A DNA stretch of 64,000 nt from Polyangiales bacterium (GCA_038231275.1 JBBRLQ010000002.1:576001-640000); one strand, 5' to 3'; shown: positions 24,286 to 38,796, numbered from the stretch's first letter. A program made the numbers and translations. The notes: generated from the sequence alone by a model not told the origin.

Positions 24286-24311
24286 AATCAATAAGCCACG
24301 GCTTATTGATT
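24286..24311. promoter_or_regulatory. Probable ArsR operator (perfect 12-2-12 inverted repeat)
   Basis: AATCAATAAGCC-AC-GGCTTATTGATT a few bp upstream of the ArsR start. Confidence 0.7.
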
Positions 24312-24329: not shown

Positions 24330-26114
24330 TCAGAGCCGTGGGCGCCACATCGCGGTGCCGAGGACCATGAAGGCCTTCACGTCGTCGCCGGTGATGGCCT
24401 CGCCTTGCACCGTGAAGAGGAGCACCGAGCTCGGAAAGATCATCGCGGTGCCGCCGAACGCCGACTGCACGAGCGAGGAATGGATCGAGCGGTATTGAAT
24501 GGTCGCGTAGCGGTAGTAGCTCGAGAGATCGAGGACATCGCGGAAGAGGCTCACGCCCGGGCCCGCGCTGCCGCCGTACATGTCGAGGTAGGTCGCGTGC
24601 GAGTAGTTCGCGGACGCGTCGATGCGAAGGATCTTGGCGATGCGAACGACCCGGGCCGCGGCGAAACCGCCCGTCATGCTCGGCTCGTCGCTCACGCCGA
24701 GATCGCCGACCCTGGTGCCGCCGAGGACCAGCGAGAACGTGCCCAGCTCGACGCCGGCGTCGATCGCGCCGACCGCCCGCTTGCTCACCTTTCCGTCGCA
24801 CACCTCGGGGGCCGGAGGAGCGCCGACGGCGGCGGGGATGGTTCGGCAGAACCAGGTGATGGGCAGGTACGAGGCGAGCCAGCGCGAGCGAATCGGTTGG
24901 CGAATGTCGGTACGGACGCCGAATTGGAAGGGGCCGATGCGCGTCGACGCGTCGAAGCCCGCGGCGGTGAGCTCGATCGCCGAAGCTCCCCAAGGGTTGT
25001 CCTTCGAAAAATTCGTGACCTCGAACGTGCCGCCGATGCGCGCGGGTCCTGGGTAGATCCCGACCACGCCCGAGACGCGGCGCTCGTCGAGAGATCCGCC
25101 GAACGTCGTGCCGTGCGCGACGAGCGCGGCTTCGGGGCGCAGGTCCGCCTCCGGTCGACTGAACGCTGCTTCTACGCCGAAGCGCTGCGCGTCGACGGCC
25201 GGCGCGCCGCTCAGCGGATCGGGCAAGACGCCGCCGAACGCGCCGACCGAGAATCCGCCGCCGACGGGCGCCCGCAGGCGGAGACCGTCGAGCGTGCCCA
25301 GCGTGCTCGCCGCGTAGCGCATGCGCCCGATCCCCGCGAAATAGCCGGCGCGGCTGTAGCTGGCGAGGGCCTCGCGGAGCCAGATCGTCGGACGCGCCGA
25401 TCCCCCATCGCGTGTGCTGAGGGGCGTCGCGGCCCAACGCTGGACCGACGCGTCGAAGTCGAACGCGACCGGCGCGGCGAACGGCTCGGCGTGGATGCGC
25501 GCGTTGATCTCCACGTGGCCGATCCCCGCGCCACGCGGCCCGATCGGGAGCAGCGCGCCCGCCGATGTCGACAGACGAACGTCCCAACGCCGGCTGCGCT
25601 CCGCGTCACCCAGGGGGACATACTTCGGCTTCTGCGCGCTCGCCGGCGCGGTCTCGTCCGTCCACCCCTGCTGCCACGTCGCCAGCGGCCGCGGCGGCGG
25701 GAGCTCCTTCGCCTTCTCGGTATCCTCGCCGACGATCGAAGCCTTCCCCTTCTCCTGCTCGCGGAGGAGATCGTCGCCGGTGTCCACGATCGCGAACGAC
25801 GCGGTCGATTGGACCACCGGGTATTCTTTGCGATCGATCGTGACCTTCGATCCTCTGTGCACGCCGCCCGCGGTGCCCGGCTTCACGTACGCCGCGCGGC
25901 CCGCGACTTCGACGACGACGACGTCGATCGACGTGGCGCCGCGCGGAGGAGGAGCCGGCGGAGGCACCGACACTGGACCGGGGGCTGGCGCGGGGACGTG
26001 CGCAGGCGCGGGCAGAGGCTTGGGCTTCGGCTTCCGCTGCGCCGCGGCCGTCGACGCGACGAGGCTCACGGCGAGCGCGAGGAGGCTCGCGACGTGGAGG
26101 ATCGAGAGCCTCAT
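24330..26114 (-). CDS. Predicted outer-membrane beta-barrel protein (porin of a porin-cytochrome module)
   Basis: Sec signal, Pro-rich linker, then many alternating amphipathic strands (FSVGAFGG, RFGVEAAF, LRIDASANY) and a terminal strand FMVLGTAMWRP. ATGA-coupled to the decaheme gene. Confidence 0.7.
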   Translation of the reverse strand: MRLSILHVASLLALAVSLVASTAAAQRKPKPKPLPAPAHVPAPAPGPVSVPPPAPPPRGATSIDVVVVEVAGRAAYVKPGTAGGVHRGSKVTIDRKEYPVVQSTASFAIVDTGDDLLREQEKGKASIVGEDTEKAKELPPPRPLATWQQGWTDETAPASAQKPKYVPLGDAERSRRWDVRLSTSAGALLPIGPRGAGIGHVEINARIHAEPFAAPVAFDFDASVQRWAATPLSTRDGGSARPTIWLREALASYSRAGYFAGIGRMRYAASTLGTLDGLRLRAPVGGGFSVGAFGGVLPDPLSGAPAVDAQRFGVEAAFSRPEADLRPEAALVAHGTTFGGSLDERRVSGVVGIYPGPARIGGTFEVTNFSKDNPWGASAIELTAAGFDASTRIGPFQFGVRTDIRQPIRSRWLASYLPITWFCRTIPAAVGAPPAPEVCDGKVSKRAVGAIDAGVELGTFSLVLGGTRVGDLGVSDEPSMTGGFAAARVVRIAKILRIDASANYSHATYLDMYGGSAGPGVSLFRDVLDLSSYYRYATIQYRSIHSSLVQSAFGGTAMIFPSSVLLFTVQGEAITGDDVKAFMVLGTAMWRPRL

Positions 26115-27145
26115 CGGCGCGCTCCTCCCGGGTGGCAGCTGAGGCACGAGGCACCGTCGCTCGCGACCGGTTTCTTGTGCTGCTGCATCAGGCGCATCGG
26201 ATCGTGCGTGTGGCAGCCGATGCATCGCACCGCGCGGGGCACCGCCGGCGAGGAGTGGCAGTCCTCGCAGGTCGCGGTGCGGTGCACGCCGAACGAAATC
26301 GGGAACCGCAGATCGTGGCCGGCCGGCGCAGCACGCAGACCGCTCGTCACCGCGCTCGTCCCGGTTCCTGGGATCGTCGCCGGCACCCACGCGATCGCGC
26401 GGTGGCAAAGGCTGCAATCGCGAGGGAACGGCGGGGTCGTGGCGTCACCCACGTGAGAAGGCCGCAGATCAGGCCGGCGGAAGTCCTTCTCGTGACAGGC
26501 GAAGCACTCGATGGGCGCGCCCGTCCAGCGGTGCTCGCTGGCGCGGCGATGGCACTCCGAGCAGTCCGCGAGCACGTGCATCCCGGTCAGCGGGAAGCGC
26601 GTCATGCGATGGATCTCGAGCGGCCTCGTCACCTTCCATCCGGCCGGCGAGTGGCAGTTGTCGCAGGATCGCGAGAGGCGCCCGCGATGGAAGTCCTCGT
26701 GGCAGCTGATGCACGATCGCTTGATGGCGCGCGTGCTGTTGTGGCACGAGACGCACGACGCGTGAATGTGCTGTCCGGTGAGCGGAAAGCCGGTGGTCGA
26801 GTGATCGAACTTCACCTCGCCGCCCGCCGCGTCCTTGTCCTTCCACGCGGTGGTGGAGTGGCATGCGCTGCACGCAACCGCGTCGGTGAAGCTCCGCTTG
26901 GCGGCCGCGCCCGCGGGGGATGGCGAGGTCGCGGCCTGCGTTGCGGACGGGGCCGGTGCGGCGGGCGGGGGGGACGAGGCCGACGGCGGCGGCGGGGCGG
27001 ACGAAGCGGACCACGCGGACGGCGCCGGCGCGAGAGGCGGGGGGCCGCCCGCCGGGGTTGCGCCCGGCTGCGCAAACGCGATCGGAGCGAGCGCGGCCAC
27101 GAACAGGCACAGCGCGAGCGCGAGGGTGCGGGGCGCGGTCGTCAT
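26111..27145 (-). CDS. Decaheme c-type cytochrome
   Basis: Signal peptide, Pro/Ala linker, 10 CxxCH, FDH..TGFPLTG.H repeats. Confidence 0.92.
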   Translation of the reverse strand: MTTAPRTLALALCLFVAALAPIAFAQPGATPAGGPPPLAPAPSAWSASSAPPPPSASSPPPAAPAPSATQAATSPSPAGAAAKRSFTDAVACSACHSTTAWKDKDAAGGEVKFDHSTTGFPLTGQHIHASCVSCHNSTRAIKRSCISCHEDFHRGRLSRSCDNCHSPAGWKVTRPLEIHRMTRFPLTGMHVLADCSECHRRASEHRWTGAPIECFACHEKDFRRPDLRPSHVGDATTPPFPRDCSLCHRAIAWVPATIPGTGTSAVTSGLRAAPAGHDLRFPISFGVHRTATCEDCHSSPAVPRAVRCIGCHTHDPMRLMQQHKKPVASDGASCLSCHPGGARR

Positions 27146-28983
27146 AGCTCCGCCCGCGCTTCGTGAGGGTTGGCGTGGCAGAACTTGCACTCGTTCGACG
27201 AGAGCCGCCACCGGATGGTCGGCTTGGCTTCACCGCGTACCGGCGCCATCGCGTGGCACTTCACGCACTCGGCCTTCGCGTGCTTCCCGGTCAACGCCCA
27301 GCCGGTGATCGCGACGTGATCGAAGCCCGGGATCTTGAACGCCTTCGTCGAGTGACACTTGTCGCACTCCTGCACCGGGGCCTTCATGCGGAACTGGCCG
27401 AGGTGAATGTCCTCGTGGCAGCCGCCGCAGTTGCGTGGCACGCCGCGGTAGCTCGCGCCGCTTCCCTTCTTGCGATCTTCGGGCGTCGGGTGGTGGCAGC
27501 TGTCGCACTGGGCCGTGGCGTGCACGCCGGTCAGCGGCCAGATGCGGTGATCGATCTTCGGGAGCTTCCATCCATTCGACTCGTGGCACTGCGCGCAGCC
27601 CCCGATCGCCATCTCTTTCGCGAACTGGTTGCCGTGCGGATTCGCGTGGCAGTCGGCGCACACTTGCTTGACGACGTGGAGATCCATGCGCGGGCGCGCC
27701 GCCTTGTGGCACTCGGAGCACGGCGTCGCGATGTGCTTGCCGATGAGCGGGAAGCGCGTCGTCGCGTGCGAGACCACGCTGAAGAGCGTGGGATAGAACC
27801 CCGGCGTCGCGTGGCACGGAGCGCACTCGCCTTTGTCCGCCTTGACGAACTCGCCCTTGTGCTTGTCCTCGTGGCAGTCTGCGCAGCGACCGAACGCGAG
27901 CTTTCGGTAGCGTGCCTCTCGTGGGATCTCCGGTTTGTGGCAGCCCGCGCACGGCGTGGCCTCGTGCTTGCCGGTGAGCGGGTACTCTGTCCGCGGATGG
28001 GCGGCGAGGCCGACGGACCGCGCCAGACCGAGCCACTGGATCGACGCGTGGCAGCTCCCGCACGCGCGTCCGAACGGCGCCTTGTGGATCGGCCGATGGC
28101 ACGACGCGCACTCTCGTCCCTTCGAAGGTGCGACGAGGTTGCCCTTGTCGTGGCACGTCTTGCACGCGACCTGCGCGTGTCCGTTGCCGAGGCTCGTGCC
28201 CGGATGCTTCGCGCCGCCGTGCTTGAACGTCACCGGCTTCCACTTCGTGTCCTCGTGGCAGTCGGGGCACGACGGACCGAGGCGCCCGTCGTGGACGTCC
28301 TTGTGGCAATCCTGGCAGACGGCGAACTTGAGCCCGACGTACTTCGGCGGCTCCATGTGGCACTTCGCGCAGAGGACCTTCTGGTGCGCGCCGCGCAGCG
28401 GAAACTTCGAGAGATCGTGGTCGAAGGTCTTGAGGTTGAGCTCCTTCCACGCCGTCTCGTTGTGGCAGTTGAGGCACGTCGCTCCGAAGCGCCCTTGGTG
28501 TTGATCCTTGTGGCACGGCACGCACGTCGTCCCGAGGCCGAGGAACGTCGGGTTGCCGCGCGCGTTGCTCTTGGTGTGGCACTTGTTGCACGCCGTCGTC
28601 TGGTGCGCGCCGTTCAGCGGCCAGCCGGTCTGCGCGTGATCGAGCTTGGTCTGATCTCCACCGGGCCATCGCATGAGCGCCCTCGCGCCCAGGTGCTCGG
28701 CGTGGCATTTCTCGCACGCCTGCCCCTTGAACTGGCGGCCGTGGAGGCCTTGCCCCGCCGCGATCCGCCCGCCGAGATCGCCGTGGCACTTGAGGCAGCC
28801 GCTCTGGTCGACGCGCTTTCCGGAGCTGTGGCATTCGCTGCAGTGCGTGTCTCCTTCGAGCGAGGCGTGCGCCTTCGACATCGGCCCCGGCGAAAGAAGC
28901 TGCGCGCGCGCGACACGGGCGGACACCATCACCAGAAAGGCGACCGCAACGCCGAGGACCACGCGGACGAGCGTCCGCTTCAT
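27142..28983 (-). CDS. Multiheme c-type cytochrome, 23 CxxCH (periplasmic)
   Basis: MKRTLVR signal, LSPGPMSKAH, 23 CxxCH in triheme repeats H..T.(F/W)PL.G.H. ATG overlaps the upstream TAA. Confidence 0.93.
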   Translation of the reverse strand: MKRTLVRVVLGVAVAFLVMVSARVARAQLLSPGPMSKAHASLEGDTHCSECHSSGKRVDQSGCLKCHGDLGGRIAAGQGLHGRQFKGQACEKCHAEHLGARALMRWPGGDQTKLDHAQTGWPLNGAHQTTACNKCHTKSNARGNPTFLGLGTTCVPCHKDQHQGRFGATCLNCHNETAWKELNLKTFDHDLSKFPLRGAHQKVLCAKCHMEPPKYVGLKFAVCQDCHKDVHDGRLGPSCPDCHEDTKWKPVTFKHGGAKHPGTSLGNGHAQVACKTCHDKGNLVAPSKGRECASCHRPIHKAPFGRACGSCHASIQWLGLARSVGLAAHPRTEYPLTGKHEATPCAGCHKPEIPREARYRKLAFGRCADCHEDKHKGEFVKADKGECAPCHATPGFYPTLFSVVSHATTRFPLIGKHIATPCSECHKAARPRMDLHVVKQVCADCHANPHGNQFAKEMAIGGCAQCHESNGWKLPKIDHRIWPLTGVHATAQCDSCHHPTPEDRKKGSGASYRGVPRNCGGCHEDIHLGQFRMKAPVQECDKCHSTKAFKIPGFDHVAITGWALTGKHAKAECVKCHAMAPVRGEAKPTIRWRLSSNECKFCHANPHEARAEL

Positions 28984-29891
28984 TAGAAGATCCACCGAAA
29001 GCCGTAGTACCAGGCGACGCCGATGTGCACCGACACGCTGAGGACCATCAAGAGCGCGAGGAAGCGATGAATCGAGCGCCACGAGCGCATCACCGCTCCG
29101 CCGGCGTGCGTGTCGACTTCCGAGGCCGCGAGCTGGCCGAGCTCCTCGATGAGCGCGCGAACGAACTTGGGGTCTTTTACTTCGACCACGCGCGCGAGCT
29201 TGTCGCCTCGAACGGCCTCTCCCATTCCGCGCCGCCGTTGCCTGGCCTCGAGGATCCAACGCGGCATCGTCACAACCGCGCGAAAGATCGACGCGTCGGC
29301 CGGGAGCCGCGTCACCGGCGCCGTCTTGACGAACTCCTCCACGCGCTTCGCGACGCCGGGCAACAGCGGCTGAATCTCCGCGAGTCGGTCCTTGAGCGGC
29401 TTGAGACCCGCCTTTGGGACGAGCGCGTAGAGGTAGAGGCCGATGAGGCCCGTGAGGACCACGATGCCGAGGCTCACCGACGTGAGCGTCGCGATCGGCG
29501 TGCGCAGCTGGAACGCCGAGTGGAACACCACGAGCAGCGACCCCACGAGCCCGGTGAAGACGTGGATGTTGAGCCACGTCTTCATGGTGCCGAACGAGTC
29601 TGGGATGTAACGGGCGAACCGCCGCCGCACGAGGTAGAGCAGGTTCGTCAGGATCAGCGCGGTCCCGACGATGCCGTAGCCGTGGCCCAAGAACCCGGAG
29701 GGGCTCAGCGTCCGGAAGTCCTGATGGTCGACGCGGGCGTCGAGGGAGAGCCGGTAGTAGCTCATGCCGCGCCAGAAGAGGAGCGCGGTCAGGAGCACGA
29801 GAATGAGCACCGTGAGGACCAGCGCGATGCGCCGCGGCTTCGCCGGCTCCGGCCCACCCGCGGGTCCGCTCGTCGTGACGACCTGGCTCAT
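28983..29891 (-). CDS. Integral membrane protein with four intramembrane His (cytochrome b/ferric-reductase-like, inferred)
   Basis: About 5 TM segments. WLNIHVFTG, VVFHSAF, WRSIHRF, SVHIGV. Coupled to the 23-heme gene. Confidence 0.7.
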   Translation of the reverse strand: MSQVVTTSGPAGGPEPAKPRRIALVLTVLILVLLTALLFWRGMSYYRLSLDARVDHQDFRTLSPSGFLGHGYGIVGTALILTNLLYLVRRRFARYIPDSFGTMKTWLNIHVFTGLVGSLLVVFHSAFQLRTPIATLTSVSLGIVVLTGLIGLYLYALVPKAGLKPLKDRLAEIQPLLPGVAKRVEEFVKTAPVTRLPADASIFRAVVTMPRWILEARQRRRGMGEAVRGDKLARVVEVKDPKFVRALIEELGQLAASEVDTHAGGAVMRSWRSIHRFLALLMVLSVSVHIGVAWYYGFRWIF

Positions 29892-30011
29892 TGGCTCCCC
29901 AGGAGACCAGAGACGCGCGCGCTCGTACCAGACAAATCCGGCGCACTCCTGCCCTCCGCGATCGATCCTCGAGCGGATCTTCGGCTCAGCGTCATCCGTG
30001 CCTGGTGTGAA

Positions 30012-30635
30012 TCAGAATCCGTCGGAGCGGCGCGCCGCGAGTGCGACCGCGCTCACCGTCTGCGGCGGCGCCCGGCGAGGCGCGCGAGTGGCCTTGCGCG
30101 AGTTTCTCTTCTCCGGCGTCGCGGTGGCCGACGGCGCGTCCTTCGCCGGCTTCGCCTCCGGCGTGATCGGCTTGGCGGCAGGGGCGACCGGAGAGACCGC
30201 AGCGAGCGGCGAGACCGGTGCGACGTTGGTGACCGTCGGCGGTGCAGCGATCGGCGCGGCGACCGGCGCAGGTGCAGGCGCGGCTACCGCGGCGACGACT
30301 GCAGGAGCAGCGACGGGCGCATCCGTCGCGCCGCGCCCCAGAACGATCGCGTGCCCTCGCTCGACGATGAACGACCGCGTCGACCCATCCACGAAGATCG
30401 CGCCGACGACGACGAGGAGGGCCGCGGCGATTACGTACCGGACCTTCCCGTGACGCTTCTTCGGGGCGATGCCCTGAAGCGCGTTGAAGAACGCCGGGCT
30501 CAGCTCGACGAGGGCCGTCTGAATTTCCGTGAGCGACTCGAACGCCCTGCGGATGACCGGCGGGTCGTAGTCCGTCGCGTCTAGGAGGGCCAATCGACGC
30601 GCGCTCGAGGGGGGAGGGTTAGCCACGTTCGACAT
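30012..30635 (-). CDS. Hypothetical single-pass membrane protein with Pro/Ala-rich tail
   Basis: One hydrophobic helix VIAAALLVVVGAIFV and a low-complexity C-terminus. Confidence 0.55.
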   Translation of the reverse strand: MSNVANPPPSSARRLALLDATDYDPPVIRRAFESLTEIQTALVELSPAFFNALQGIAPKKRHGKVRYVIAAALLVVVGAIFVDGSTRSFIVERGHAIVLGRGATDAPVAAPAVVAAVAAPAPAPVAAPIAAPPTVTNVAPVSPLAAVSPVAPAAKPITPEAKPAKDAPSATATPEKRNSRKATRAPRRAPPQTVSAVALAARRSDGF

Positions 30636-30788
30636 GCGCTCTGTAGGTGGGGTGCCAGCCTTTGGAGGCGGCAGGAAAGAGCAGTCACCGGCAAAAAATC
30701 GCCTGCTTACCTGGATCTTCGACGCACCGGCGGCGTCGCGCCGCGCGCTTGAGCTATCGCCAAATGACCATGAATCGCGTAGTTAGAG

Positions 30789-30806
30789 TGGATCGTAAAC
30801 GATCCA
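30789..30806. promoter_or_regulatory. Palindrome GGATCG-N4-CGATCC (copy 1), candidate operator or hairpin
   Basis: TGGATCGT-AA-ACGATCCA in an AT-rich gap. Related copy at 35355-35370. Confidence 0.4.
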
Positions 30807-30841
30807 GCCGCTCGTTGCTCCTCTAGTTAGTACTCCAACGC

Positions 30842-32005
30842 CTACTTCACGCCGGCCGCGTGGCACTTCAGGCAATAGTTCGTCGTCACGTCCCCGGTCG
30901 GGTAGTTCGGGACGGGGCCTCCGCCGTCGGGCCGTGAGAGGTGCCAGGCGTCGATGGCCGGGCTGACGTGCGAGCCGAGGTGGCAGTGGATGCAGTCGGT
31001 GTTCGCGCCGCCGGCCGAAACGCCCTTCGCGAGGACGTGGCAATCCTGGCAGGTGATGCCGGGGTTCGCGTGGATGCCCGTAGTCACCGCGAACTTCGCC
31101 TCGGGGTGAGGCCCAGTGATCGCCGGCTTCCAGCCCGCCATCTGGTGGCAGTTGAGGCACGTATGCGGGAACGTCGAGTGGTTCGGGAACGTGCTCGCAT
31201 CCGCAGCCGCCTTGTGACACGCGTAGCAATCGGTCGTCGTGCCTTTGTACACGGGCGTCGGGCCCGTATGGCAGCCGACGCACGCGACGAGGACGTGCTT
31301 CCCCTGAAGCGGCCACGTGTGATTGTAGGAGCTCGGCTTCCATCCGGCTGCCGTGTGGCAATCCGAGCAGCTCGTGGAGAGCCCCTTGTGGATCGGGCTC
31401 GCCGCCTTGTCGGCATCCTTCTGGTGGCAGTCGGTGCACCCCTTGGGCGTGCCCTTGTAGAGCGGCGGATCGCCGGTGTGGCAGGAGTTGCACGGCGTGG
31501 TCGCGTGCACGCCGTCGAGCGGCCACGGATGCTGGAACGTCGACGGCTTGAACCCGACGTCGTTGTGGCAAAGCTTGCAGTCGAGCGGAAAGCCGGTGTG
31601 CTTCGGAGCGGTCGCGCCGTCGTAATCTTTTTTGTGGCACCCCTGGCAGTCCGTCGGCGTTTCGTTTGGATGGAAGCCGGTCGTGTGGCACGCCGTGCAC
31701 GTCGGGCCCACGTGCTTGTTCTGGAGCGGCCACCAGAAGTGGTTCTGCACTTGGGCGGGAACCCAGCCCTGCGTCGAGTGGCAGTCGTTGCACGTGTTCG
31801 GCAATTTGCCGACGTGCACGGGGTTCGCCGCCGCGTTGTAGCCCGCGGCGTGACACGAGTAGCACGCGGTGTTCTTCGCCTCCGCCGTGTCGTGGATGTT
31901 CTGCTGCCGGCCACACGCGAACGCGGCGACGAGCGCGGCGACGCCCAACGAAATCGTCAGGGCCGCGTGCGCTCGTCCTTTGGGGAGTGTGGCCGGTGGC
32001 TGCAT
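30842..32005 (-). CDS. 14-heme c-type cytochrome lipoprotein
   Basis: Lipobox-like AAFAC, 14 CxxCH, H.WPL.G.H triheme repeats. Start could be 32032. Confidence 0.9.
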   Translation of the reverse strand: MQPPATLPKGRAHAALTISLGVAALVAAFACGRQQNIHDTAEAKNTACYSCHAAGYNAAANPVHVGKLPNTCNDCHSTQGWVPAQVQNHFWWPLQNKHVGPTCTACHTTGFHPNETPTDCQGCHKKDYDGATAPKHTGFPLDCKLCHNDVGFKPSTFQHPWPLDGVHATTPCNSCHTGDPPLYKGTPKGCTDCHQKDADKAASPIHKGLSTSCSDCHTAAGWKPSSYNHTWPLQGKHVLVACVGCHTGPTPVYKGTTTDCYACHKAAADASTFPNHSTFPHTCLNCHQMAGWKPAITGPHPEAKFAVTTGIHANPGITCQDCHVLAKGVSAGGANTDCIHCHLGSHVSPAIDAWHLSRPDGGGPVPNYPTGDVTTNYCLKCHAAGVK

Positions 32006-32043
32006 CTCGTTCCGTTGCCTCGATGAGTCCACCTAGCCGCGGC

Positions 32044-35000
32044 TCACCACTTCGAGGCGCCGTGGCATGTGCTCGTGCACGCCAACGTCGTCGTATTGTA
32101 CGTCGTCATCTTCGGGCCCGCGACGTCCTTCACCCCATTGAGGTGAAGGGTCATGTTGACGGTGCCCGCCCCGTTCTTGTGAGTGTAGCCGGTGCCGTGG
32201 CAATCGCCGCATACGTTGCCGCTGTGCGTGCCGTGCTTACCCGTGCTCGGCGGCGTGGTGTGGCAGGAGCCGCAGACCATCGCTCCGCCGGTCCAGGACG
32301 GCGCGAAGGCGGTGGTGCCACCGGGGAAGTCGCCGTGGCAATACGAGTTCGTGCAGGTGGTGCCGTTCCACGCGGGGACGACGCCTCCGGTCTTCGCGAA
32401 CGCGCCGAAGTTCACCTGCACGACGCCGTCGCTGTGGAGGTTGGTCGACGGGACGGCGTGGCAGTCGTTGCACTGCACCGGCTTGGCGGCGAATGTGGCC
32501 TTGTTCAAGTGGCCCTGGTGAGCGCCGACCGCGAGGGTCGTCGTCGCGGTCTCGCCCTTGGTGCCGAGCGGAGGCGCCGAGGTCTGGCGGGTGTCGGCGC
32601 CTGCGATTCCGACGCGCGTGCCGTCGCCGTGGCACGAGTAGCAGCTGAGCGAGCTCTGATCGACATCGATGACGCCGTTGATGTGCGTCGTCTTGTTGAC
32701 CGTTTTGCCAGTCGCCGAATAACCGGCGCCGTGGCACGCGGAGCAAACGATCGCGGGGTTCGCGTGCGGCGGAGTGGCGGGAGGCGCTCCGTGGCACGAG
32801 GCGCACCCGATGGTGAGGTTGGTCCACGTCGCCGTGGCGTTCGCGCCGCCGGAGAAGTCGCCGTGACAGTACGACGTCGTGCACGTCGCGCCGCTCCACA
32901 CCGGCGTCACACCGCCGGTCTTGGCGAGCGTGCCCCAGGACATGTCCACCTTGCCGTTGCTGTGGCTGTTGCTGATCGGGACCACGTGGCACTCGTTGCA
33001 CTGGGTGGGCGTGGCGAACGTTCCGGTGTTGACGTGGCCGTCGTGCGCGCCGACCGCGCGCGTCGAGGTCGCGGTTTCACCCTTCGAGCCGTTCGGCGGC
33101 GACGCCTTCACCTGAGGATCGGCGCCTGCAACGCCCGCGCGCGCCGTCGTGCCGTGGCACGAGCTGCACGTCATCGTGGTCTGGTCGACGTCGATGACGC
33201 CGTTGATGTGGGTGGTCTTGTTGACCGTCTTCGCGGTCGCGTCGTAGCCAGCGCCGTGGCACGACGCGCACGGGGTCGCCGGGTTCGTGTGCGCCGGAGT
33301 CGCGGGCGGCAACGCGTGGCACGAGCCGCACGTGACCGTCCCGGTGCCCGTCCAGGTTGGCGCGGCCGCGGTGTTTCCACCGGTGAAGTTGCCGTGACAG
33401 TACGACGCCGTGCACGACGTTCCGTTGAACGCCGGAGCGACGCCGCCCGTCTTGGCGAGCGCACCGAAGAGCATGTCGATCTTGCCGTTGCTGTGCGCCG
33501 TGCTGATCGGAACGACGTGGCACTCGTTGCACTGGATCGGTGTGCTGAAGGTCCCCGTGTTGACGTGCGCTTGGTGCGCGCCGACCGGGAGCGTCGATCC
33601 CGCAGGCGAGACCGGTGGAGACGCCGCCACATCCAAGTCCGCGCCGGCCACGCCAACGCGCGTCGCCGTCCCGTGGCACGAGGTGCACGTGAGGTTGCCG
33701 TTGCCGGTGGGCGTGTCGATGACGCCGTTGATGTGCGTGGGCTTGTTGACGGTCTTCGCCGTCGCGTCGTAGCCGGCGCCGTGGCAGGTCGCGCACGGAG
33801 TCGCGGGGTTCCCGTGCGGCGCGACGCCGGGGTTGGGCGGCAACGCGTGGCACGAGCCGCACGCCTGCGCGCCGGGAACCGCCCACGACGGAGTGTTCGC
33901 GTTGGCGCCGCCGGTGAAGTTGCCGTGGCAGTAGTTGTTGCAGCCGGTGCCGTTCCACGTCGGCACGGCGCCCGCGGTCTTCGCCAACGCGCCGAACAGA
34001 ATGTCCACGACGCCGTTGCTGTGGTTCATGCTCGTCGGCACGACGTGGCAATCCGCGCACTGCAGCGGCTTGCCGGTGAGATCGAGGGCATTGACGTGCG
34101 CCGCGTGCGCGCCGACCGCGCGCGTCGTGGCGAGCGTCTCGCCCTTCGAGCCGATCGGCGGCGCCGACTTGATGTTCGGATCTGCGCCCGCGACGCCGAC
34201 GCGGGTGAGATCGCCGTGGCACGAGCTGCACGTGGCCGACGTAGTGTTCACGTTGACGGCGCCGTCGATGTGCGTCGCCTTGTTGACCGTCTTCGCGGTC
34301 GCCGAGTAGCCCGCGCCGTGGCAGGTGGAGCACTCCATCGCCGGGTTCGAGTGCGGCGGCGTCGGGGGCGGCGTTCCGTGGCACGAGCCGCAGTTCATCG
34401 GCCCGCTGGTCCACACCGGGGCCGACGTCGTCGCGCCTCCGGGGAAGTTGCCGTGGCAATAGCTGCTCGTGCAGGAGTTGCCGTCCCACACGGGAGACGC
34501 GCCCGCGGTCTTCGCCATGCCACCGAACGCGATGTCCACGATGCCGTTGCTGTGCGACATGGCCGTGGGGATGACGTGGCAGTCCGCGCATTGGAGCGGA
34601 TTGGCAGACCAGTCGGATTTGTTCACGTGCGCTTGGTGCGCGCCGACGGCGCGATCGGTCGTGAGGACCTCGCCGTTGGTGCCCTTCGGCGGAGCCACCT
34701 TCAGGCTCGGATCGGCGCCCGCGATGGCGACGCGCGTGGCGTCACCGTGGCACGTCGTGCACGTCGCGTTCGGGGGAACCGCGCCGGCGCAGAACCCGAC
34801 GTAGTCGGCCTGCATCCACGCTTCGAACGCCTGGAGCTCGGCGGCCGTGGCGGGGTTGTTGAATGCCGACGGCGGCATCGGCGTCTGGATCTGCTGCATC
34901 CTCTCGAACGCGACCTCTCCGACGGTCTTGCTCTTGTCCACGGTCGACCACTGGACCATGTCGGCCGCGGTCATGAGCGGGACGAGCGCGCCGCCCGCCG

Positions 35001-35271
35001 GCGGGTTCGAGTGACACACCTGGCATTTGGTGGTGAGGAGCGTCTTCACCTCGCACGTGAAGCCCGCGCCTTTCGGCAGCTGCGCCACCGGCCGGGGCGG
35101 ACCGCCGAGCTCGTTCGGAATGCGATTCGCAGCCGTCGGCCCGGGGACTCCGATCCCGTCGGCGCCCGCATCCTGCGCGCCCGCGTCGTCGGATTTGGCG
35201 CTGCACCCGAAGAGGAGCGCGCAGGCGACGAGGCCGGCGGCGAACCATGCGAAGGGCGAGCGGACGACCAT
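32044..35271 (-). CDS. Giant CxxxxCH/CxxCH-type multiheme cytochrome lipoprotein (27 motifs)
   Basis: Lipobox LFGC. 21 CxxCH, 4 CX4CH and 2 CX3CH. Five tandem pentaheme repeats. Confidence 0.92.
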   Translation of the reverse strand: MVVRSPFAWFAAGLVACALLFGCSAKSDDAGAQDAGADGIGVPGPTAANRIPNELGGPPRPVAQLPKGAGFTCEVKTLLTTKCQVCHSNPPAGGALVPLMTAADMVQWSTVDKSKTVGEVAFERMQQIQTPMPPSAFNNPATAAELQAFEAWMQADYVGFCAGAVPPNATCTTCHGDATRVAIAGADPSLKVAPPKGTNGEVLTTDRAVGAHQAHVNKSDWSANPLQCADCHVIPTAMSHSNGIVDIAFGGMAKTAGASPVWDGNSCTSSYCHGNFPGGATTSAPVWTSGPMNCGSCHGTPPPTPPHSNPAMECSTCHGAGYSATAKTVNKATHIDGAVNVNTTSATCSSCHGDLTRVGVAGADPNIKSAPPIGSKGETLATTRAVGAHAAHVNALDLTGKPLQCADCHVVPTSMNHSNGVVDILFGALAKTAGAVPTWNGTGCNNYCHGNFTGGANANTPSWAVPGAQACGSCHALPPNPGVAPHGNPATPCATCHGAGYDATAKTVNKPTHINGVIDTPTGNGNLTCTSCHGTATRVGVAGADLDVAASPPVSPAGSTLPVGAHQAHVNTGTFSTPIQCNECHVVPISTAHSNGKIDMLFGALAKTGGVAPAFNGTSCTASYCHGNFTGGNTAAAPTWTGTGTVTCGSCHALPPATPAHTNPATPCASCHGAGYDATAKTVNKTTHINGVIDVDQTTMTCSSCHGTTARAGVAGADPQVKASPPNGSKGETATSTRAVGAHDGHVNTGTFATPTQCNECHVVPISNSHSNGKVDMSWGTLAKTGGVTPVWSGATCTTSYCHGDFSGGANATATWTNLTIGCASCHGAPPATPPHANPAIVCSACHGAGYSATGKTVNKTTHINGVIDVDQSSLSCYSCHGDGTRVGIAGADTRQTSAPPLGTKGETATTTLAVGAHQGHLNKATFAAKPVQCNDCHAVPSTNLHSDGVVQVNFGAFAKTGGVVPAWNGTTCTNSYCHGDFPGGTTAFAPSWTGGAMVCGSCHTTPPSTGKHGTHSGNVCGDCHGTGYTHKNGAGTVNMTLHLNGVKDVAGPKMTTYNTTTLACTSTCHGASKW
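32130..34770 (-). repeat. Five tandem intragenic repeats of about 520-545 bp (pentaheme unit)
   Basis: Units start near 34765, 34233, 33690, 33171 and 32647, each CxxCHG...GAH..H...CxxCH...HSNG...CX3-4CHG...CxxCH...CxxCHG.GY...H(I/L)(N/D)G. Confidence 0.9.
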
Positions 35272-35331
35272 GGTGTCCGTGAGTGCCGCGGGCTCTCCGA
35301 AAGGTTGCACCAACGTTGGCGGAAAATCGCC

Positions 35332-35370
35332 ACGGGTGGATCCACCCGTATCCAGGATCGCTTACGATCC
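35332..35370. promoter_or_regulatory. Two adjacent palindromes upstream of the 27-heme gene
   Basis: ACGGGTGGATCCACCCGT (35332-35349, perfect 18-mer) and GGATCG-CTTA-CGATCC (35355-35370). Confidence 0.45.
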
Positions 35371-35390
35371 AACGAAATTCGGCCGATTTT

Positions 35391-36125
35391 TCAATGTTGC
35401 ACGAGGGTCCCCATCATCGTGTCGAACTCGGCGCGCGCCGCGAGGACCGTCTTCGCCGGGCCGGTGATCTTGAAAAAGTGGGGCATTCCGGCCGTCGCGA
35501 CGATGGACCCGAGCAACGCCCAGCCCGCGCCGCCATCCTTCCCCATGCCGCCTTCGAACTTGCCCTGGACCTCGACGATCGTGACGGCGAGCGCGCCGAC
35601 GTTGCGTGTGCTGCGCTTCGCCGTCTTGCGCGATTCGGCGTCGAACTGGCCGACCCATCTGTCCGCGTTCGCTTCGACCGAGCCGCCTGCTTGCGTGATC
35701 GAGAGCTCCGCGTCCTCGGTGTCCCCCGGCGCGCGCGGCACGCGGTAGGTGGCGAGGCGCATCGTGCTCGCGTTCGGAACGAGCACCCACCGCGCCGGCG
35801 CCTTGTACTCGAGCGACGACTGCGCTCCGGCGGGAGACGGATTCAGCTGCGAGCCCGTGGGATCCAGCGGATCGACCGCAGGATGCCCCGCCGGCAACGG
35901 CTGCGCGCCCATCGGATCGGCGCCGCCCGTCGGCGGGTGCCCGGGCGGCAGCGGCTGGTCGTTGTCGACGAACGGCATCGCCGCAGGCGGCGGGCTCGAC
36001 GGAGGAGACGTGGACATCGCCTCTGAGGCAGGCGGCGCCATCGATTTACCTGCGGCGAACGCAGCCGCAGAGGCGATGGCGACGAGGGCGAAGACCGAGG
36101 GGAGGCTGAGGCGCACATTGGTCAT
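35391..36125 (-). CDS. Exported hypothetical protein with two LP(P/A)GHP motifs
   Basis: Signal peptide, PLPPGHPP and PLPAGHP, globular domain P..W...MRLATY...GGSVEANADRWVGQF...FFKITGP. Confidence 0.75.
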   Translation of the reverse strand: MTNVRLSLPSVFALVAIASAAAFAAGKSMAPPASEAMSTSPPSSPPPAAMPFVDNDQPLPPGHPPTGGADPMGAQPLPAGHPAVDPLDPTGSQLNPSPAGAQSSLEYKAPARWVLVPNASTMRLATYRVPRAPGDTEDAELSITQAGGSVEANADRWVGQFDAESRKTAKRSTRNVGALAVTIVEVQGKFEGGMGKDGGAGWALLGSIVATAGMPHFFKITGPAKTVLAARAEFDTMMGTLVQH

Positions 36126-36255
36126 GACGTTAAGTGCATCCTACCGTCAGTTTTGCTCCACCGTTGTTCGCAGAATCTCCGTGATCCATCTTTGGGGATC
36201 GGAGTCGCGGCCTGCTACTGAGTAAATAAGGTGGAACATGGTGGAGAACGACCCG

Positions 36256-36906
36256 ATGAAGACGAAGAGGCGTGCGCTCCGTGACTCGTTCATGCACATG
36301 TGGCCCCTCGTGCTCGCCGTACCGCTCTCTGCGCTCGCGTGCAGCAGCAGCAGCGCCAGCAAGTCCCAACCGGGCAACGATGGCGGCGCGCCGGGAGACG
36401 ACGGTGGCCTGGCCGACGGCGCCGCAGGGGACGGCGGGCACGGCGATCTCGACGCGGGGATCGATCCGTCGCTCAACCCCGATCCCAAGGACCTCGACCC
36501 GACCAACGGCGACCCGTCGCTCGACATCGGTGGCTCGCAGATCTACTTCGACAAGGGCGCTCCGTGGGTGCGCGTCGAGTTTTACGGGGCGTGGCCGCCG
36601 GCCGCGACGGTGTACTCGTGGGCGTGCTCGGTGATCCTCGGCACGCAGAACGCGCCCGTGGTCACCTACACGGTTCAGTCCACGAAGGGAAAGCAGACCG
36701 ATGCCGTCGACGGAATGGACAAGGCGAAGGTCACGCTCGCCGTCGAGCCGAGGGGCTTCCGCGTGCTGCTCGGGGACGCGACGCTCGTGTTCGATCGCTA
36801 CGCCCTCGAGTGCAACGTCGAGTCGACGGACACCGGCACGATGGTCCAGGACACGAGCGGCTCCTTCGTCATCACCACGAAAATCGATCGCGCCTTCGGA
36901 CCCTGA
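36256..36906 (+). CDS. Hypothetical lipoprotein
   Basis: Lipobox ALAC, DGG-rich linker, beta-rich domain. Confidence 0.65.
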   Translation: MKTKRRALRDSFMHMWPLVLAVPLSALACSSSSASKSQPGNDGGAPGDDGGLADGAAGDGGHGDLDAGIDPSLNPDPKDLDPTNGDPSLDIGGSQIYFDKGAPWVRVEFYGAWPPAATVYSWACSVILGTQNAPVVTYTVQSTKGKQTDAVDGMDKAKVTLAVEPRGFRVLLGDATLVFDRYALECNVESTDTGTMVQDTSGSFVITTKIDRAFGP

Positions 36907-36942
36907 CGCGAATCGAACGGACGCCCTCTTCGAGCGTCGGTC

Positions 36943-38286
36943 TTACTTCGACAACGGCTCTCCGTAGAGCGTTCGTATCCCGATTCCCATGCTCTTCAAG
37001 AAGTCGAAGGGCGGAATCGTCCCCATGAACAGGATGATGTAGTCGTTCGGGATCTCGACGCGCTCGCCCTTCTTGTCGAGGACCAACCTGTCCGGATGGA
37101 TCTCCTTCACGCCGGTCGAGTAGAAAATGTGGACGAGCCCGGCCTTCTCCATCTGCTCGATTTTGATCTTGTTGTCGTCTTTGCAACGTGAGAGCGCGTC
37201 TCCACGCACGAGCAGGTGGACGGTGTTCCCGAGCTTCTGATCTCCCACGCGCTGCGCCGCCTCGACCGCCGAGTCGCCGGCGCCGACGACGACGATCTTG
37301 CACCCCTGGTACTGCTCGGGGTCGCTCAGCTTGAAGGTGACCTTCTCGGTGTCCTCGTTCGGTAGCCCGAGCTTCCTCGGCGTGCCGCCCACGCCGACCG
37401 CGAGGATGACCTTCCTCGCGCGCACGATCCCGGCGCTCGTCTCGACCTCGAAAACCTTTCCGTTGGTCTTCGCGTTGACGAACTTCACGCGCTCGTCGAC
37501 TTGGAGGCCCACCTTCGCGCAGACGTCCTTCCAGTACTTGAGGAGGTCCTCCTTCACGATGCGGTTCTTCGGAAAGCTCATTTTCCCGATGAGCGGCAGC
37601 GCGGCGGGGTGGCTCATGACCAACTTTTGGCGGGGGAAGTTGTAGACGGTGCCGCCGAACGTATTTTGCTCGATGCAGCGGAACTTGGCCTTGAGCTCGA
37701 TGCACTTCAGCGACGCCGCGATCCCCGCGGGGCCCGCGCCGACGACGAGGACGTCCACGTCGGCGGGAGCGGACCTGTCCAGGTTGGCGACCGCGTGGGT
37801 CGCCGCGTAGACGCCTTGCTTGATCGCGTTGGCGATGAGGCCCATCCCTCCGAGCTCGCCGGCGATGTAGAGACCGTGGACGTTCGTCTCGTAGTTCTCG
37901 TTGTAGTCGGGGACCTGCTTGCCGGTCTTCTCGCTGCCGAAGACCATCGTGATCGCGTCGACGGGGCACGAGCGGTAGCAGAGCGTGTGGCCCACGCACT
38001 TGGTGGGGCTCACCAGCGCGGGTAGGCCGTTGACCATCTGCAAGATGTCCCCTTCGGGACAGACCTGAGTGCAAATGCCGCAGCCCGAGCACTTGTCGAG
38101 ATCGATCTTCGGGTAGAGGGCGTACGCGTCCGTCTTGCCGGACTTGATGGTGGCTTGGAGCTTCTCTTCGGCCTTCTTATTTGCCTTCGCTCGGCGCCTT
38201 CCAAATATCGCGTAGATCACGATGGTGACGAGGATCACCAGGACGACCGACAGACTGGTCTTGCTCAGGTTCGCTAAGAAATGCAT
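36943..38286 (-). CDS. Membrane-anchored 2x[4Fe-4S] ferredoxin fused to a TrxR-fold FAD/NAD(P) oxidoreductase
   Basis: N-terminal TM helix, CSGCGICTQVCP, CVGHTLCYRSCP, VVGAGPAG, VVGAGDSAVE. No redox CxxC in the flavin domain. Confidence 0.88.
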   Translation of the reverse strand: MHFLANLSKTSLSVVLVILVTIVIYAIFGRRRAKANKKAEEKLQATIKSGKTDAYALYPKIDLDKCSGCGICTQVCPEGDILQMVNGLPALVSPTKCVGHTLCYRSCPVDAITMVFGSEKTGKQVPDYNENYETNVHGLYIAGELGGMGLIANAIKQGVYAATHAVANLDRSAPADVDVLVVGAGPAGIAASLKCIELKAKFRCIEQNTFGGTVYNFPRQKLVMSHPAALPLIGKMSFPKNRIVKEDLLKYWKDVCAKVGLQVDERVKFVNAKTNGKVFEVETSAGIVRARKVILAVGVGGTPRKLGLPNEDTEKVTFKLSDPEQYQGCKIVVVGAGDSAVEAAQRVGDQKLGNTVHLLVRGDALSRCKDDNKIKIEQMEKAGLVHIFYSTGVKEIHPDRLVLDKKGERVEIPNDYIILFMGTIPPFDFLKSMGIGIRTLYGEPLSK

Positions 38287-38708
38287 CTCACGACCTCACC
38301 GTCCTTCGAAAATTCCAGCGTCACGAGGGGATCGTAGAGGGTCTCCTTGTACTTCCACTTCTTGCTCGCCCACGGGTTCCACGAGGAGTGCGCGGCGAGC
38401 GTCATCGTGCGGACCGTGCCGCTCTCGTGGAAGTCGAGCGGCGCGTTCGCCTTGACGTGAGCCATGACCCCGTAGGCGTCCAGCGTCGCCTCCTCGCAGA
38501 GGACGCACGACTTCAAGGTCCCGTCGGGGAAGAACTTCACGGCGTCACCCGCCCTCAGCTTCACCTGACTCTTGGCGATCATCCACTCGGTGTCGATCTC
38601 CGGCACGAACGATTTGTAGCTGCCGTCCGGGTAGAGCTCGACGTGAGTATAGCCCGAGTTGTCCACCCAGTTCGTGGCGTCCTTCTTCTTCTCGTCTTCC
38701 TCGCCCAT
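38274..38708 (-). CDS. Hypothetical cytoplasmic protein
   Basis: Coding-like codon use, repeated (Y/F)..DG..KS motifs, overlaps the oxidoreductase start by 13 bp. Confidence 0.65.
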   Translation of the reverse strand: MGEEDEKKKDATNWVDNSGYTHVELYPDGSYKSFVPEIDTEWMIAKSQVKLRAGDAVKFFPDGTLKSCVLCEEATLDAYGVMAHVKANAPLDFHESGTVRTMTLAAHSSWNPWASKKWKYKETLYDPLVTLEFSKDGEVVRCIS

Positions 38709-38796
38709 GGTGCCCCCGCGCGTCCGCGTCAGGCTTCACGTTACCGCGAGGCATGGCACCACGACAGCTCCGGCTCGGATGGGCGCGCGGTCAGGG

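Follow-up and report, generated by a model that had tools for sequence, protein, structure and literature searches.

We found that a gene cluster from a Polyangiales bacterium probably encodes a PCC3-like porin-cytochrome conduit with a NOX-like, two-part NAD(P)H dehydrogenase as its input, through which electrons would flow outward independently of quinones. The cluster lies within a 64,000-nucleotide stretch of DNA (GCA_038231275.1 JBBRLQ010000002.1:576001-640000), referred to here as the window. Our reading builds on gene content, motifs, a barrel fold, co-conservation, and gene fusions, all of which are shown here. The genes, A to K, were found at the coordinates given in the original prediction, and its total of 74 heme motifs was recovered (i.e., 23 in B, 10 in C, 14 in F, and 27 in G). 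All are on the minus strand except I (36238-36906, plus strand). The translational coupling claimed for A, B, C, and D was read directly from the sequence as TAATG at A/B, ATGA at B/C, and ATGA at C/D, and co-conservation of the locus genes was found across related loci. Cytochrome c maturation is represented in the host genome by three PF01578 matches above cut-off. O2-dependent flavoenzymes had been listed among the neighbors as a hint of an aerobic host; these reduce to one FMO-like ORF (306-2099), 22 kb away, and the four matches to heme-copper oxidase subunit I in the host genome are a better sign of aerobic capacity.

Gene A (28983-29891) encodes an inner-membrane protein of 302 aa with five hydrophobic helices, its N-terminus inside and its C-terminus outside, and loop charges that obey the positive-inside rule. 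The motif W-x3-H-x13-H occurs twice, on TM3 (W106, H110, H124) and on TM5 (W271, H275, H289), while T-G-x-x-G lies on TM4 (T147, G148, G151); all nine residues are invariant across 22 sequences. From its sequence, A is predicted to be a di-heme-b transmembrane electron carrier. Pfam searches gave no match for A at threshold, with DUF4405 and cytochrome b561 appearing only below it. DUF4405 (PF14358) reached 22.5 bits against a gathering cut-off of 26.7 and covered residues 268-294 (i.e., TM5) only, Ferric_reduct (PF01794) gave no match at E ≤ 0.01, and a PDB sequence search found no relative. The AF2 model of A (pLDDT 81.8) gave a best Z of 9.2 in a fold search, a generic helical and uninformative match. 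At E ≤ 0.001, the A family comprises 3645 representatives, and those of its clusters whose names were looked up carry only Myxococcota or Deltaproteobacteria labels.

The membrane-anchored ferredoxin/FAD protein of the original prediction is J (36943-38286; 447 aa), a cytoplasmic Fer4/FAD flavoprotein and the predicted electron entry point. Its N-terminal TM helix is followed by a +6 charge, residues 59-115 form a ferredoxin-like 4Fe-4S dicluster region (CxxCxxCxxxCP and CxxHxxCxxxCP), and residues 180-436 match Pyr_redox_3 (E 1.7e-38), a thioredoxin-reductase-fold FAD/NAD(P)H domain. The closest solved structures to the flavin domain are YpdA/Bdr and TrxR-type ferredoxin-NADP reductases (7a76, 7a7b, 2zbw, and 3ab1; E 9.4e-39 for 7a76_A to 2.7e-25); J differs from these by its TM anchor and by a ferredoxin-like domain of its own. 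The YpdA/Bdr bacillithiol disulfide reductase family (TIGR04018) scored 163.7 bits against J, under its curated cut-off of 339.9. Judging from these sequences, members of the A and J families would bind heme b, FAD, and Fe-S clusters. Within the host genome J is the top match to the J family (588.8 bits), and the sole other match scored 315.1. The J of the window shares about 50% identity with Bdellovibrionales proteins and only 32-38% with the J genes that adjoin ABCD elsewhere, so its orthology to the latter is positional rather than clean; the family to which it belongs may pair with other proteins.

Judged from the window alone, an input through J and A would be a guess, as J sits 7 kb from ABCD. 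Five genes lie between J and A, one on the opposite strand, so the two do not form one transcript. We found a J homologue within 22 of the 26 distinct related loci identified through the barrel; its placement varies among upstream in the same orientation, divergent, and downstream of D. The four loci without J within their bounds are two contigs shorter than 3.7 kb, one barrel remnant, and the closest related locus, L034, in which a 92% identical J lies just past the locus end and gene order is as in the window. A sample of 401 Myxococcota genomes gave 95 strong J matches (E ≤ 1e-110), of which 84 have an A match no more than 10 kb away and 63 no more than 3 kb, whereas only two of 52 weaker matches to J-like paralogues, which served as the control, fall within 3 kb. 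A matches occur in 113 of these genomes, and J is within 10 kb in 77 of the 113. Among 20 loci chosen by A match alone, 19 contain J and 17 contain ORFs with at least 10 CXXCH motifs.

Fusions link the two genes further. An A domain at the C-terminus occurs in 13 proteins of 739-761 aa, every one of which carries N-terminal Fer4 and Pyr_redox domains, and one protein has the reverse order (A-J); both orders are found in species-representative genomes. Between the two parts, A-J fusions contain an additional TM helix and, after it, a run of Arg, which the predicted topologies of A and J need. Complex prediction for J and A gave a median score of 0.53 (runs 0.55, 0.53, and 0.52; best of three controls 0.01), with contacts agreeing by at least 63% and a partner pLDDT of at least 74. 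Of 80 solved complexes, 58 scored at or above the mark used, as did two of 110 mismatched pairs, and scores at the mark but no higher than 0.60 were seen for only seven of the 80 solved complexes and for both of those mismatched pairs. The score of J with A falls in the range that the tool classes as weak, and the modeled complex lends weak support to the pairing. The proposed input by a flavoprotein and a cytochrome b-like protein has therefore gained support from synteny, phylum-wide co-localization, fusions, and a weak complex score. Judged by gene neighborhoods and fusions, J is a genuine partner of A.

The pair can be compared with the NADPH oxidase / ferric reductase domain superfamily (NOX, FRE), reportedly described by Zhang et al. 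in 2013. The likeness is in the path from NAD(P)H to flavin, to two stacked b hemes, and to an acceptor across the membrane. In A, two helices each carry a His pair spaced by 13 residues, this bis-His spacing being all that is common, and in fusions the J helix adds a sixth TM. In contrast to NOX/FRE, the dehydrogenase J has a TrxR fold and an Fe-S domain rather than an FNR fold, the acceptor would be a multiheme cytochrome rather than O2, and J and A are usually two separate genes. DUF4405, MsrQ-like, and PepSY-like proteins are likewise described as small, heme b-binding membrane proteins that have four His at their center and move electrons outward from the cytoplasmic membrane (PMC11334425); in the portion of that source drawn on here, these systems serve flavinylated proteins and not multiheme conduits.

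A precedent for the ABCD core comes from PCC3 (He et al. 2017, PMC5566968; Hoover et al. 2023, PMC9900912), a cluster known to date from bioinformatic prediction alone, in Proteobacteria that include Sideroxydans and Leptothrix. As outlined in the sections consulted, its inner-membrane protein has about 300 aa, five TM regions, SGxxG on TM4, and W-x3-H-x13-H on TM3 and TM5 (PMC5566968), and it is accompanied by a periplasmic cytochrome with 21-27 hemes, a second cytochrome with 10-35 hemes, and a barrel (PMC5566968, PMC9900912). A fits in length, in its five helices, and in both W-x3-H-x13-H motifs, with Thr replacing Ser in TGxxG; the 23 and 10 CXXCH motifs of B and C are within the PCC3 ranges; and D is a cluster-encoded barrel of 22 strands whose gene overlaps C by ATGA. 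By motif and heme-count description, rather than by reference sequences, the ABCD core matches the PCC3 signature. The novelty that had been left possible for this core therefore does not hold, its precedent being that bioinformatically proposed signature. No end-to-end match to an experimentally characterized system, which had been named as a refuter, was found, and the literature searched yielded no description of an NAD(P)H-fed input to a porin-cytochrome conduit. PCC3 was modeled as quinone-linked, with flow inward to quinones in iron oxidizers, and as described in those sections it includes no flavoprotein (PMC5566968, PMC9900912). In contrast, an NAD(P)H-type flavoprotein is co-conserved with A here and in some genomes is fused to it.

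We reasoned that the locus could instead be a quinol-fed PCC3-type conduit, in which A would act as a quinol dehydrogenase or quinone reductase and J, not being the main input, as an accessory that maintains A or the cytochromes in the reduced state or has a regulatory or repair role. This agrees with the proposal of the PCC3 inner-membrane protein as a quinone-active cytochrome b (He et al. 2017, PMC5566968), with the four genes of Sideroxydans PCC3 in that account, where a flavoprotein goes unmentioned, with the 29 of 113 A-match genomes that have no strong J match, and with the one A-chosen locus (L084) that contains A and ORFs of 21 and 27 hemes without J. We consider it improbable, as independent fusions in both orders and the placement of most strong J matches near A fit poorly with an accessory J, and as the His pairs of A are laid out as in NOX-type through-membrane carriers.

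Our data indicate that D (24330-26114; 594 aa, signal peptide, no CXXCH) folds as an outer-membrane beta-barrel, as had been predicted. The AF2 model has a mean pLDDT of 80.9 and 22 strands over residues 177-590, preceded by a small N-terminal beta domain (residues 62-126). Structure searches (Foldseek, VIA) returned outer-membrane barrels, the best a 22-strand match with Z 18.4 to 5t3r_D; MtrB (6r2q_B) came at rank 32, under TonB-dependent-type barrels, with Z 13.9 over 352 residues. D has no match to a Pfam or NCBIfam family or to a plug family, and its homologues, at least 181, are all unnamed or hypothetical. Its gene neighbor C (26111-27145; 344 aa, 10 CXXCH) encodes a secreted cytochrome c with a Pro/Ala/Ser linker of about 70 residues after the signal peptide and Pfam matches to Cytochrome_C7 and class III, and has an orthologue in every related locus with sufficient flank. 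C is a candidate for a cytochrome seated in or passing through the barrel. The secreted 23-heme cytochrome c encoded by B (27142-28983; 613 aa, 23 CXXCH) has 26.7 aa per heme and matches Cytochrome_C7 (E 4.5e-24), and is a candidate periplasm-spanning wire.

MtrCAB of Shewanella (6r2q) has a common logic with this arrangement, in which an outer-membrane barrel encloses a decaheme cytochrome and a lipoprotein cytochrome is placed externally. MtrB has 26 strands, and Mtr is fed from quinol by CymA. PDB profile searches gave no sequence relation to MtrCAB for B or D, the D profile finding no match to MtrB, and the DmsE/MtrA decaheme family (TIGR03508; cut-off 192.2 bits) gave no match for C and only 29.9 bits for F and 47.8 for G. 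As no relation to MtrA or MtrB was detectable in the sequences of B, C, or D, a barrel-with-cytochrome arrangement of C and D is proposed by analogy only.

Two putative lipoprotein cytochromes are also encoded. F (30842-32005; 387 aa counted from Met, 14 CXXCH) has a cysteine after an AFA sequence, and F-like cytochromes with 4-14 hemes adjoin J in most related loci; F is a candidate cell-surface partner. G (32044-35271; 1075 aa, LFGC lipobox) has 27 heme motifs (21 CXXCH, two CX3CH, and four CX4CH) in five repeats, matches the TIGR01904 CxxxxCH/CxxCH domain in five stretches (E 3.1e-53), and was found in the closest relative only, at 86% identity. It is a candidate extracellular terminal cytochrome.

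A chain that stops in the periplasm or outer membrane, with J-A-B(-C) feeding NAD(P)H electrons to a periplasmic or envelope process and D acting as a substrate channel or unrelated porin instead of a cytochrome sheath, is unlikely. MsrQ-like, PepSY-like, and DUF4405 cytochromes are described as serving extracytosolic enzymes in the relevant part of one study (Huang et al. 2024, PMC11334425), a weak D-like match occurs in only seven of the 20 distant loci chosen by A, and D, which has no sequence relation to MtrB, ends atypically in ...WRPRL without the usual terminal aromatic residue. Against this, D is translationally coupled to C, is kept with A-B-C in all 22 loci that have an A match, and is a large barrel with no plug family match. 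Lipoprotein cytochromes are present in the locus, and at least 33 hemes are too many for a periplasmic hand-off. The periplasmic or envelope processes considered were reductive detoxification, MsrQ-type repair, and deliberate superoxide or peroxide production.

For the preferred NAD(P)H-fed conduit we infer the cofactors, the use of NAD(P)H, the carrier order, the direction of flow, and the acceptor as follows. NAD(P)H would be oxidized at the FAD in the cytoplasmic domains of J, held by its one-helix anchor, and the two Fe-S clusters of J would relay electrons singly to A. Two b hemes, with a His pair on TM3 and TM5 as the ligands of each, would carry the electrons over the inner membrane. 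The 23-heme B would span the periplasm, the 10-heme C inside the barrel D would cross the outer membrane, and F and G would distribute electrons on the outside of the cell, with an external or insoluble oxidant as acceptor; the quinone pool would be bypassed. NAD(P)H has a potential of about -320 mV, and electron export runs with the inside-negative membrane potential. The original prediction held that direction is undeterminable from sequence, and this stands in part, as the redox potentials and the membrane potential would favor outward flow. Inward uptake, in which extracellular Fe(II), Mn(II), or a cathode is oxidized and J-A runs in reverse to reduce NAD(P)+, is highly improbable, since on general grounds the reduction of NAD(P)+ by Fe(II), whose couples lie near 0 mV or higher, is steeply uphill and electrons entering a negative cytoplasm cost more energy, J-A has no evident coupling site, and the hosts resemble organotrophs with aerobic respiration, even though direction had been left open and PCC3 was discovered in Fe(II) oxidizers and modeled as an uptake path in the parts of the studies drawn on (PMC5566968, PMC9900912).

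Outward, quinone-free flow would draw down the membrane potential instead of adding to it, and the conduit would therefore more likely serve redox balancing or extracellular reduction than energy-conserving respiration. To our knowledge, every characterized Gram-negative extracellular electron transfer pathway draws on the quinol pool (CymA, ImcH, CbcL, or similar). A conduit with a cytoplasmic NAD(P)H flavoprotein as its direct source would, if true, be a different bioenergetic design, and would assign a testable function to the unannotated PCC3/PCC4-type inner-membrane protein, an open point since 2017. We tentatively propose that J-A may be an unrecognized, widespread, NOX-like NAD(P)H:multiheme-cytochrome oxidoreductase, split or fused and quinone-free, in aerobic Myxococcota of soils and sediments and at least one member of Bacteroidota, where it would connect the pyridine nucleotides of the cytoplasm to the cell surface by way of a porin-cytochrome conduit. 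Such an outlet, which would not conserve energy, could be used to balance redox when oxygen is limiting, to reduce minerals or humics, or for predation-linked extracellular reactive-oxygen chemistry. The J-A module is common in Myxococcota, lineages usually seen as aerobic predators or degraders, and these hosts would broaden the electroactive bacteria expected in soils and sediments. For engineered electron export, too, an NAD(P)H-to-periplasm fusion in one polypeptide would be attractive as a building block.

Beyond Myxococcota, plasmid pEMTOL02 of Emticicia oligotrophica DSM 17448 (Bacteroidota) encodes a set of A-like (E 1.5e-47), J-like (E 5.4e-161), 23-heme, and 40-heme proteins, together with ccsA and a 538-aa hypothetical protein. 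The 23-heme protein is a homologue of B with the same number of CXXCH motifs. As this strain is cultured, genetics and biochemistry of the system are feasible. On a Methylophaga plasmid, an A-like protein occurs with an FNR-type FAD/NAD/2Fe-2S protein and a 7-heme cytochrome.

Three further genes lie in the locus. It is doubtful that K (38274-38708; 144 aa), whose stop overlaps the start of J, belongs to the conduit system; it does not adjoin J in the closest relative, and in L034 a 50% identical copy lies at a different place in the locus and on the other strand. E (30012-30635; 207 aa, one to two TM regions, Pro/Ala-rich tail) has a weak DUF3040 match and was found in the closest relative only, as a 54% identical copy. 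H (35391-36125; 244 aa) is secreted and has no Pfam family match; a resemblance to PsbP/DcrB (score 0.87) is a lead only. The H gene often neighbors the barrel gene in related loci, and its homologues adjoin D or J in L035, L037, L043, L045, L046, and L049.

The region has a G+C content of approximately 68-70%, which crowds six-frame ORF lists, and real genes were told apart by third-position G+C and haem motifs. On the minus strand lie the outer-membrane barrel D (24330-26114, 594 aa), the cytochromes C (26111-27145, 10 CXXCH motifs) and B (27142-28983, 23 CXXCH motifs), and the membrane protein A (28983-29891, 302 aa), with TAATG at the A/B junction and ATGA at both the B/C and C/D junctions. 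These are followed, on the same strand, by the small membrane protein E (30012-30635), the putative lipoprotein cytochromes F (30842-32005, 14 CXXCH motifs) and G (32044-35271, 21 CXXCH, two CX3CH, and four CX4CH motifs), and the secreted protein H (35391-36125). Beyond the plus-strand gene I (36238-36906) lie the flavoprotein J (36943-38286) and the 144-aa protein K (38274-38708), both again on the minus strand. The haem motif total over the locus is 74. We re-read coordinates, motif counts, and junctions and found every item of the original prediction's description (genes, haem motifs, and overlaps) to be correct. B, C, F, and G matched generic multihaem families only, with five copies of TIGR01904 (CxxxxCH/CxxCH domain) in G, and none of the four reached the DmsE/MtrA family cut-off. 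Protein K, which overlaps the start of J and is without a family, includes repeats of an 'xPDGxxKS'-like unit; the copy in the sister genome (50% identity) is encoded between F and E, in the reverse orientation and away from J. D is followed immediately, on its own strand, by an ArsR-family regulator (23964-24287), after which comes a DoxX-like membrane protein ORF (23120-23896). A small secondary-metabolite cluster with no relation to the conduit lies at 306-10032; it encodes an FMO-like flavin monooxygenase, an acyl-AMP ligase, an acyl-CoA dehydrogenase, and a polyketide synthase module of 1735 aa (KS-KR-ACP-terminal reductase).

The host genome (9.28 Mb, 164 contigs, 94% complete) contains three matches for cytochrome c maturation, in line with the original prediction, and four for haem-copper oxidase subunit I. 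The closest homologues are in MAGs labelled Polyangiaceae, Labilithrix, Sandaracinaceae, or Myxococcales. Among the sequencing runs listed, no RNA dataset contains the window's stretch; one sediment-metagenome run does and may be its source. Paralogues of H are found on contigs C3 and C42 of this genome, and H homologues adjoin the barrel gene or J in six related loci (L035, L037, L043, L045, L046, and L049); the sole lead to the fold of H is a PsbP/DcrB-like resemblance (score 0.87). The 57-kb contig C42 also carries a second 23-CXXCH frame (48186-49988, 601 aa, GC3 0.88), near an H-like gene (44568-45176) and a G-like 9-haem frame (51200-52732); the interval 40000-57080 has no matches to A, J, or D.

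That D would fold as a barrel was borne out by structure prediction. A 39-sequence alignment gave a model with a mean pLDDT of 80.9, comprising 22 strands preceded by a small beta domain at the N-terminus, and its structural matches were outer-membrane barrels. The best were 22-strand barrels of the TonB-dependent class (5t3r_D, Z 18.4, 369 residues aligned), and alignment to MtrB gave Z 13.9. D had no sequence family match in Pfam or NCBIfam and no plug family match, and its C-terminus is atypical. Approximately 19 weak barrel matches from other classes (E 1e-5 to 1e-3) were left out of the evidence; several of them fall within or next to J-A genes, in a different frame, and may reflect sequence composition.

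Membrane protein A has five helices, and loop charges put its N-terminus inside and its C-terminus outside. Four invariant histidines are arranged pairwise, one pair on TM3 and one on TM5; partners are 13 residues apart, and W-x3 comes before each pair. NOX and ferric reductases have this His-pair arrangement in common with A, and there it holds two stacked b haems. A NOX/ferric-reductase-like arrangement was also noted for the PCC3 and PCC4 membrane proteins by He et al. (2017, PMC5566968). PCC3 remains a bioinformatic proposal, supplemented by some expression data, and is described as a quinone-linked, inward-running system of four genes. A, B, C, and D agree with the published PCC3 signature (membrane-protein motifs, a 21-27-haem periplasmic cytochrome, a second cytochrome of 10-35 haems, and a porin), a match by description. 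Proteins of the locus fell below all curated thresholds for the Mtr, DmsE, YpdA, DUF4405, and Ferric_reduct families. PDB sequence searches with the A profile, the D profile, and the B sequence returned nothing meaningful. In a fold search with A the hits were confined to generic helical bundles, with a best Z of 9.2 (7.3 for FdnI, 1kqg_C, and 7.2 for a designed two-haem bundle), and this model comparison is uninformative, with no bearing either way on an FRD or cytochrome-b fold. At E<=0.001 the 22-sequence A profile matched 3645 representatives in a set of 1.84 billion proteins. Two A-family cluster look-ups gave few names, all with Myxococcota or Deltaproteobacteria labels; clusters of look-alikes in a protein atlas, which are leads only, were commonest in Acidobacteriota, Gemmatimonadota, and Myxococcota.

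The weakest step of the original prediction is the membership of J, which in the window lies 7 kb from A with E, F, G, H, and the opposite-strand gene I between them. Our starting view, which we then held to be probable, was that J is an unrelated neighbour; we abandoned it in view of a survey of related loci, natural fusions, and phylum-wide co-localisation of J and A. The barrel search gave 13 named MAG loci and 15 further loci, two pairs of which were the same contigs, leaving 26 distinct loci. A J homologue is present in 22 of the 26, either directly upstream of A in the same orientation, transcribed divergently from it, or downstream of D. The other four are accounted for by two contigs shorter than 3.7 kb, one barrel remnant, and L034, the closest relative, in which a 92% identical J lies just past the fetched end and the order J-I-H-G-F-...-E-A-B-C-D is that of the window. 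The genes are thus co-conserved, as had been predicted. In L061, a distant locus belonging to another class, the gene order is rearranged and J, B, C, an F-like cytochrome, D, and A are all retained. On two long-read MAG contigs (L043 and L046) the A, B, and D homologues are split over several frames, probably through assembly frameshifts rather than as pseudogenes, and L043 was excluded from the A and J alignments. All that is left in another locus (L060; G085:C1, 9425-10126) is the C-terminal third of a D-like barrel, with A, B, C, and J absent nearby; this looks like a decayed copy in a genus whose members mostly keep the system.

Co-localisation of J and A was also assessed in a sample of 401 Myxococcota genomes, which is less circular than the barrel-derived loci. 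An A match was found in 113 genomes, and strong J matches (E<=1e-110) occupied 95 places in 86 genomes. Strong J matches lay within 10 kb of A on the same contig in 84 of the 95 places, 63 of them within 3 kb, and the remaining 11 had no A match on the contig. As a control, weaker J-like matches lay within 3 kb of A in 2 of 52 cases. There were 29 genomes, out of the 113 with an A match, that had no strong J match. Among 20 loci picked non-randomly through A matches only, J was present in 19, five of these as fusions (three A-J and two J-A). ORFs with at least 10 CXXCH motifs were found in 17 of the 20, typically 36+10-16, 23+13, or 27+12, and a weak D-like match in seven.

We scanned for fusions 29 of the 150 listed A-family proteins, picked as being longer than A. 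All 13 proteins of 739-761 aa carry Fer4 and Pyr_redox_3 at the N-terminus ahead of the A domain; one 949-aa protein has the same J-A order and one 738-aa protein the reverse. Six shorter proteins have a partial flavin domain ahead of A, one is A fused to a multihaem cytochrome, and seven had no Pfam matches. The largest fusion cluster has 18 members from several sources, labelled Myxococcaceae or Archangiaceae, with a length of 750 aa in ten of the 15 listed. Between the two parts of the A-J fusions lie a sixth hydrophobic helix and then an arginine run, the layout required for A to end outside and J to work inside.

Complex prediction gave J and A a median score of 0.53, against 0.01 for the best of three controls. 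Of 80 solved complexes 58 reach the mark used, as do 2 of 110 mismatched pairs; scores that reach the mark but are 0.60 or lower came from only 7 of the 80 solved complexes plus both mismatches. Contact agreement between runs was at least 63%, with a partner pLDDT of at least 74. The modelled complex lends weak support to the pairing, for which the prior is already high given the natural fusions. Together, locus survey, phylum-wide co-localisation, fusions, and complex score support the flavoprotein and cytochrome b-like input that had been proposed. Our data support a system of the porin-cytochrome kind whose distinguishing part is an NAD(P)H entry module resembling NOX. In the openly accessible literature searched, we found no description of a porin-cytochrome conduit fed by an NAD(P)H flavoprotein, and the searched passages of a 2026 peat multihaem preprint and a 2024 MHCscan paper make no mention of the J-A module.

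After a single N-terminal helix and a stretch of charge +6, J has a two-cluster ferredoxin domain and then a flavin domain of thioredoxin-reductase fold, the nearest solved relatives of which are YpdA/Bdr and TrxR-type ferredoxin-NADP+ reductases. J looks like a ferredoxin-NADP+ reductase with its own ferredoxin domain. The second cluster motif, CxxHxxCxxxCP, is present in all 22 J sequences and suggests a His-ligated cluster. The first is canonical (CxxCxxCxxxCP) in the window's J; the 21 others all have CxxSxxC, 19 of them as CxxSxxCxxxCP, and in these related-locus proteins the motif may denote a 3Fe-4S cluster. Against the J proteins adjoining ABCD in other loci, the window's J has only 32-38% identity; with Bdellovibrionales proteins, in a family of more than 7800 scored members, it shares approximately 50%. 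The stretch of J, K, and a histidine kinase gene (38797-39909) has a G+C of 0.64, compared to approximately 0.69 around it (window 36000-40000). Given this low identity, the Bdellovibrionales similarity, and the lower G+C, the window's lineage may carry a replaced J type, possibly by horizontal replacement. The window's J is the best J match in its genome (588.8 bits, compared to 315.1 for the next), and the sister genome has its J in the corresponding place. An F-like cytochrome adjoins J in most loci, and in one (L056; G130:C2, 16511-18975) a second J copy and a 14-haem F-like cytochrome directly follow the first J.

Electrons would pass from NAD(P)H to FAD, through the Fe-S clusters to two stacked b haems of A, which the His pairs on TM3 and TM5 would hold, and then to B, to C inside D, and to F and G. 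NAD(P)H lies near -320 mV, and electron export runs with the inside-negative potential. On these textbook values we infer outward flow, since the reverse would be uphill on both potential and membrane charge. The J-A path would dissipate membrane potential, which favours a role in redox balancing or extracellular reduction rather than energy-conserving respiration.

The putative NOX-like entry module is widespread in Myxococcota and is present in at least one cultured member of Bacteroidota. We searched 72,556 plasmids with A by tblastn, and two records matched. The first (NC_018749.1, 78197-89995; L092) is the 100-kb plasmid pEMTOL02 of Emticicia oligotrophica DSM 17448, a cultured Bacteroidota strain. 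The genes there share one orientation in an operon-like row and encode ccsA, an A-like protein (E 1.5e-47), a NAD(P)-binding protein resembling J (E 5.4e-161), 23-CXXCH and 40-CXXCH cytochromes, and a 538-aa hypothetical protein. The plasmid location hints at a mobile system, and the cultured strain offers a ready experimental model. In the second, a Methylophaga pinxianii plasmid (NZ_CP095734.1, 25047-28401; L093), an A-like protein (E 1.4e-19) lies between a 612-aa FNR-type FAD/NAD/2Fe-2S protein and a 7-haem cytochrome. This is a second class of NAD(P)H dehydrogenase in the position of J, with the same A family, and the gene group adjoins a full ccm operon.
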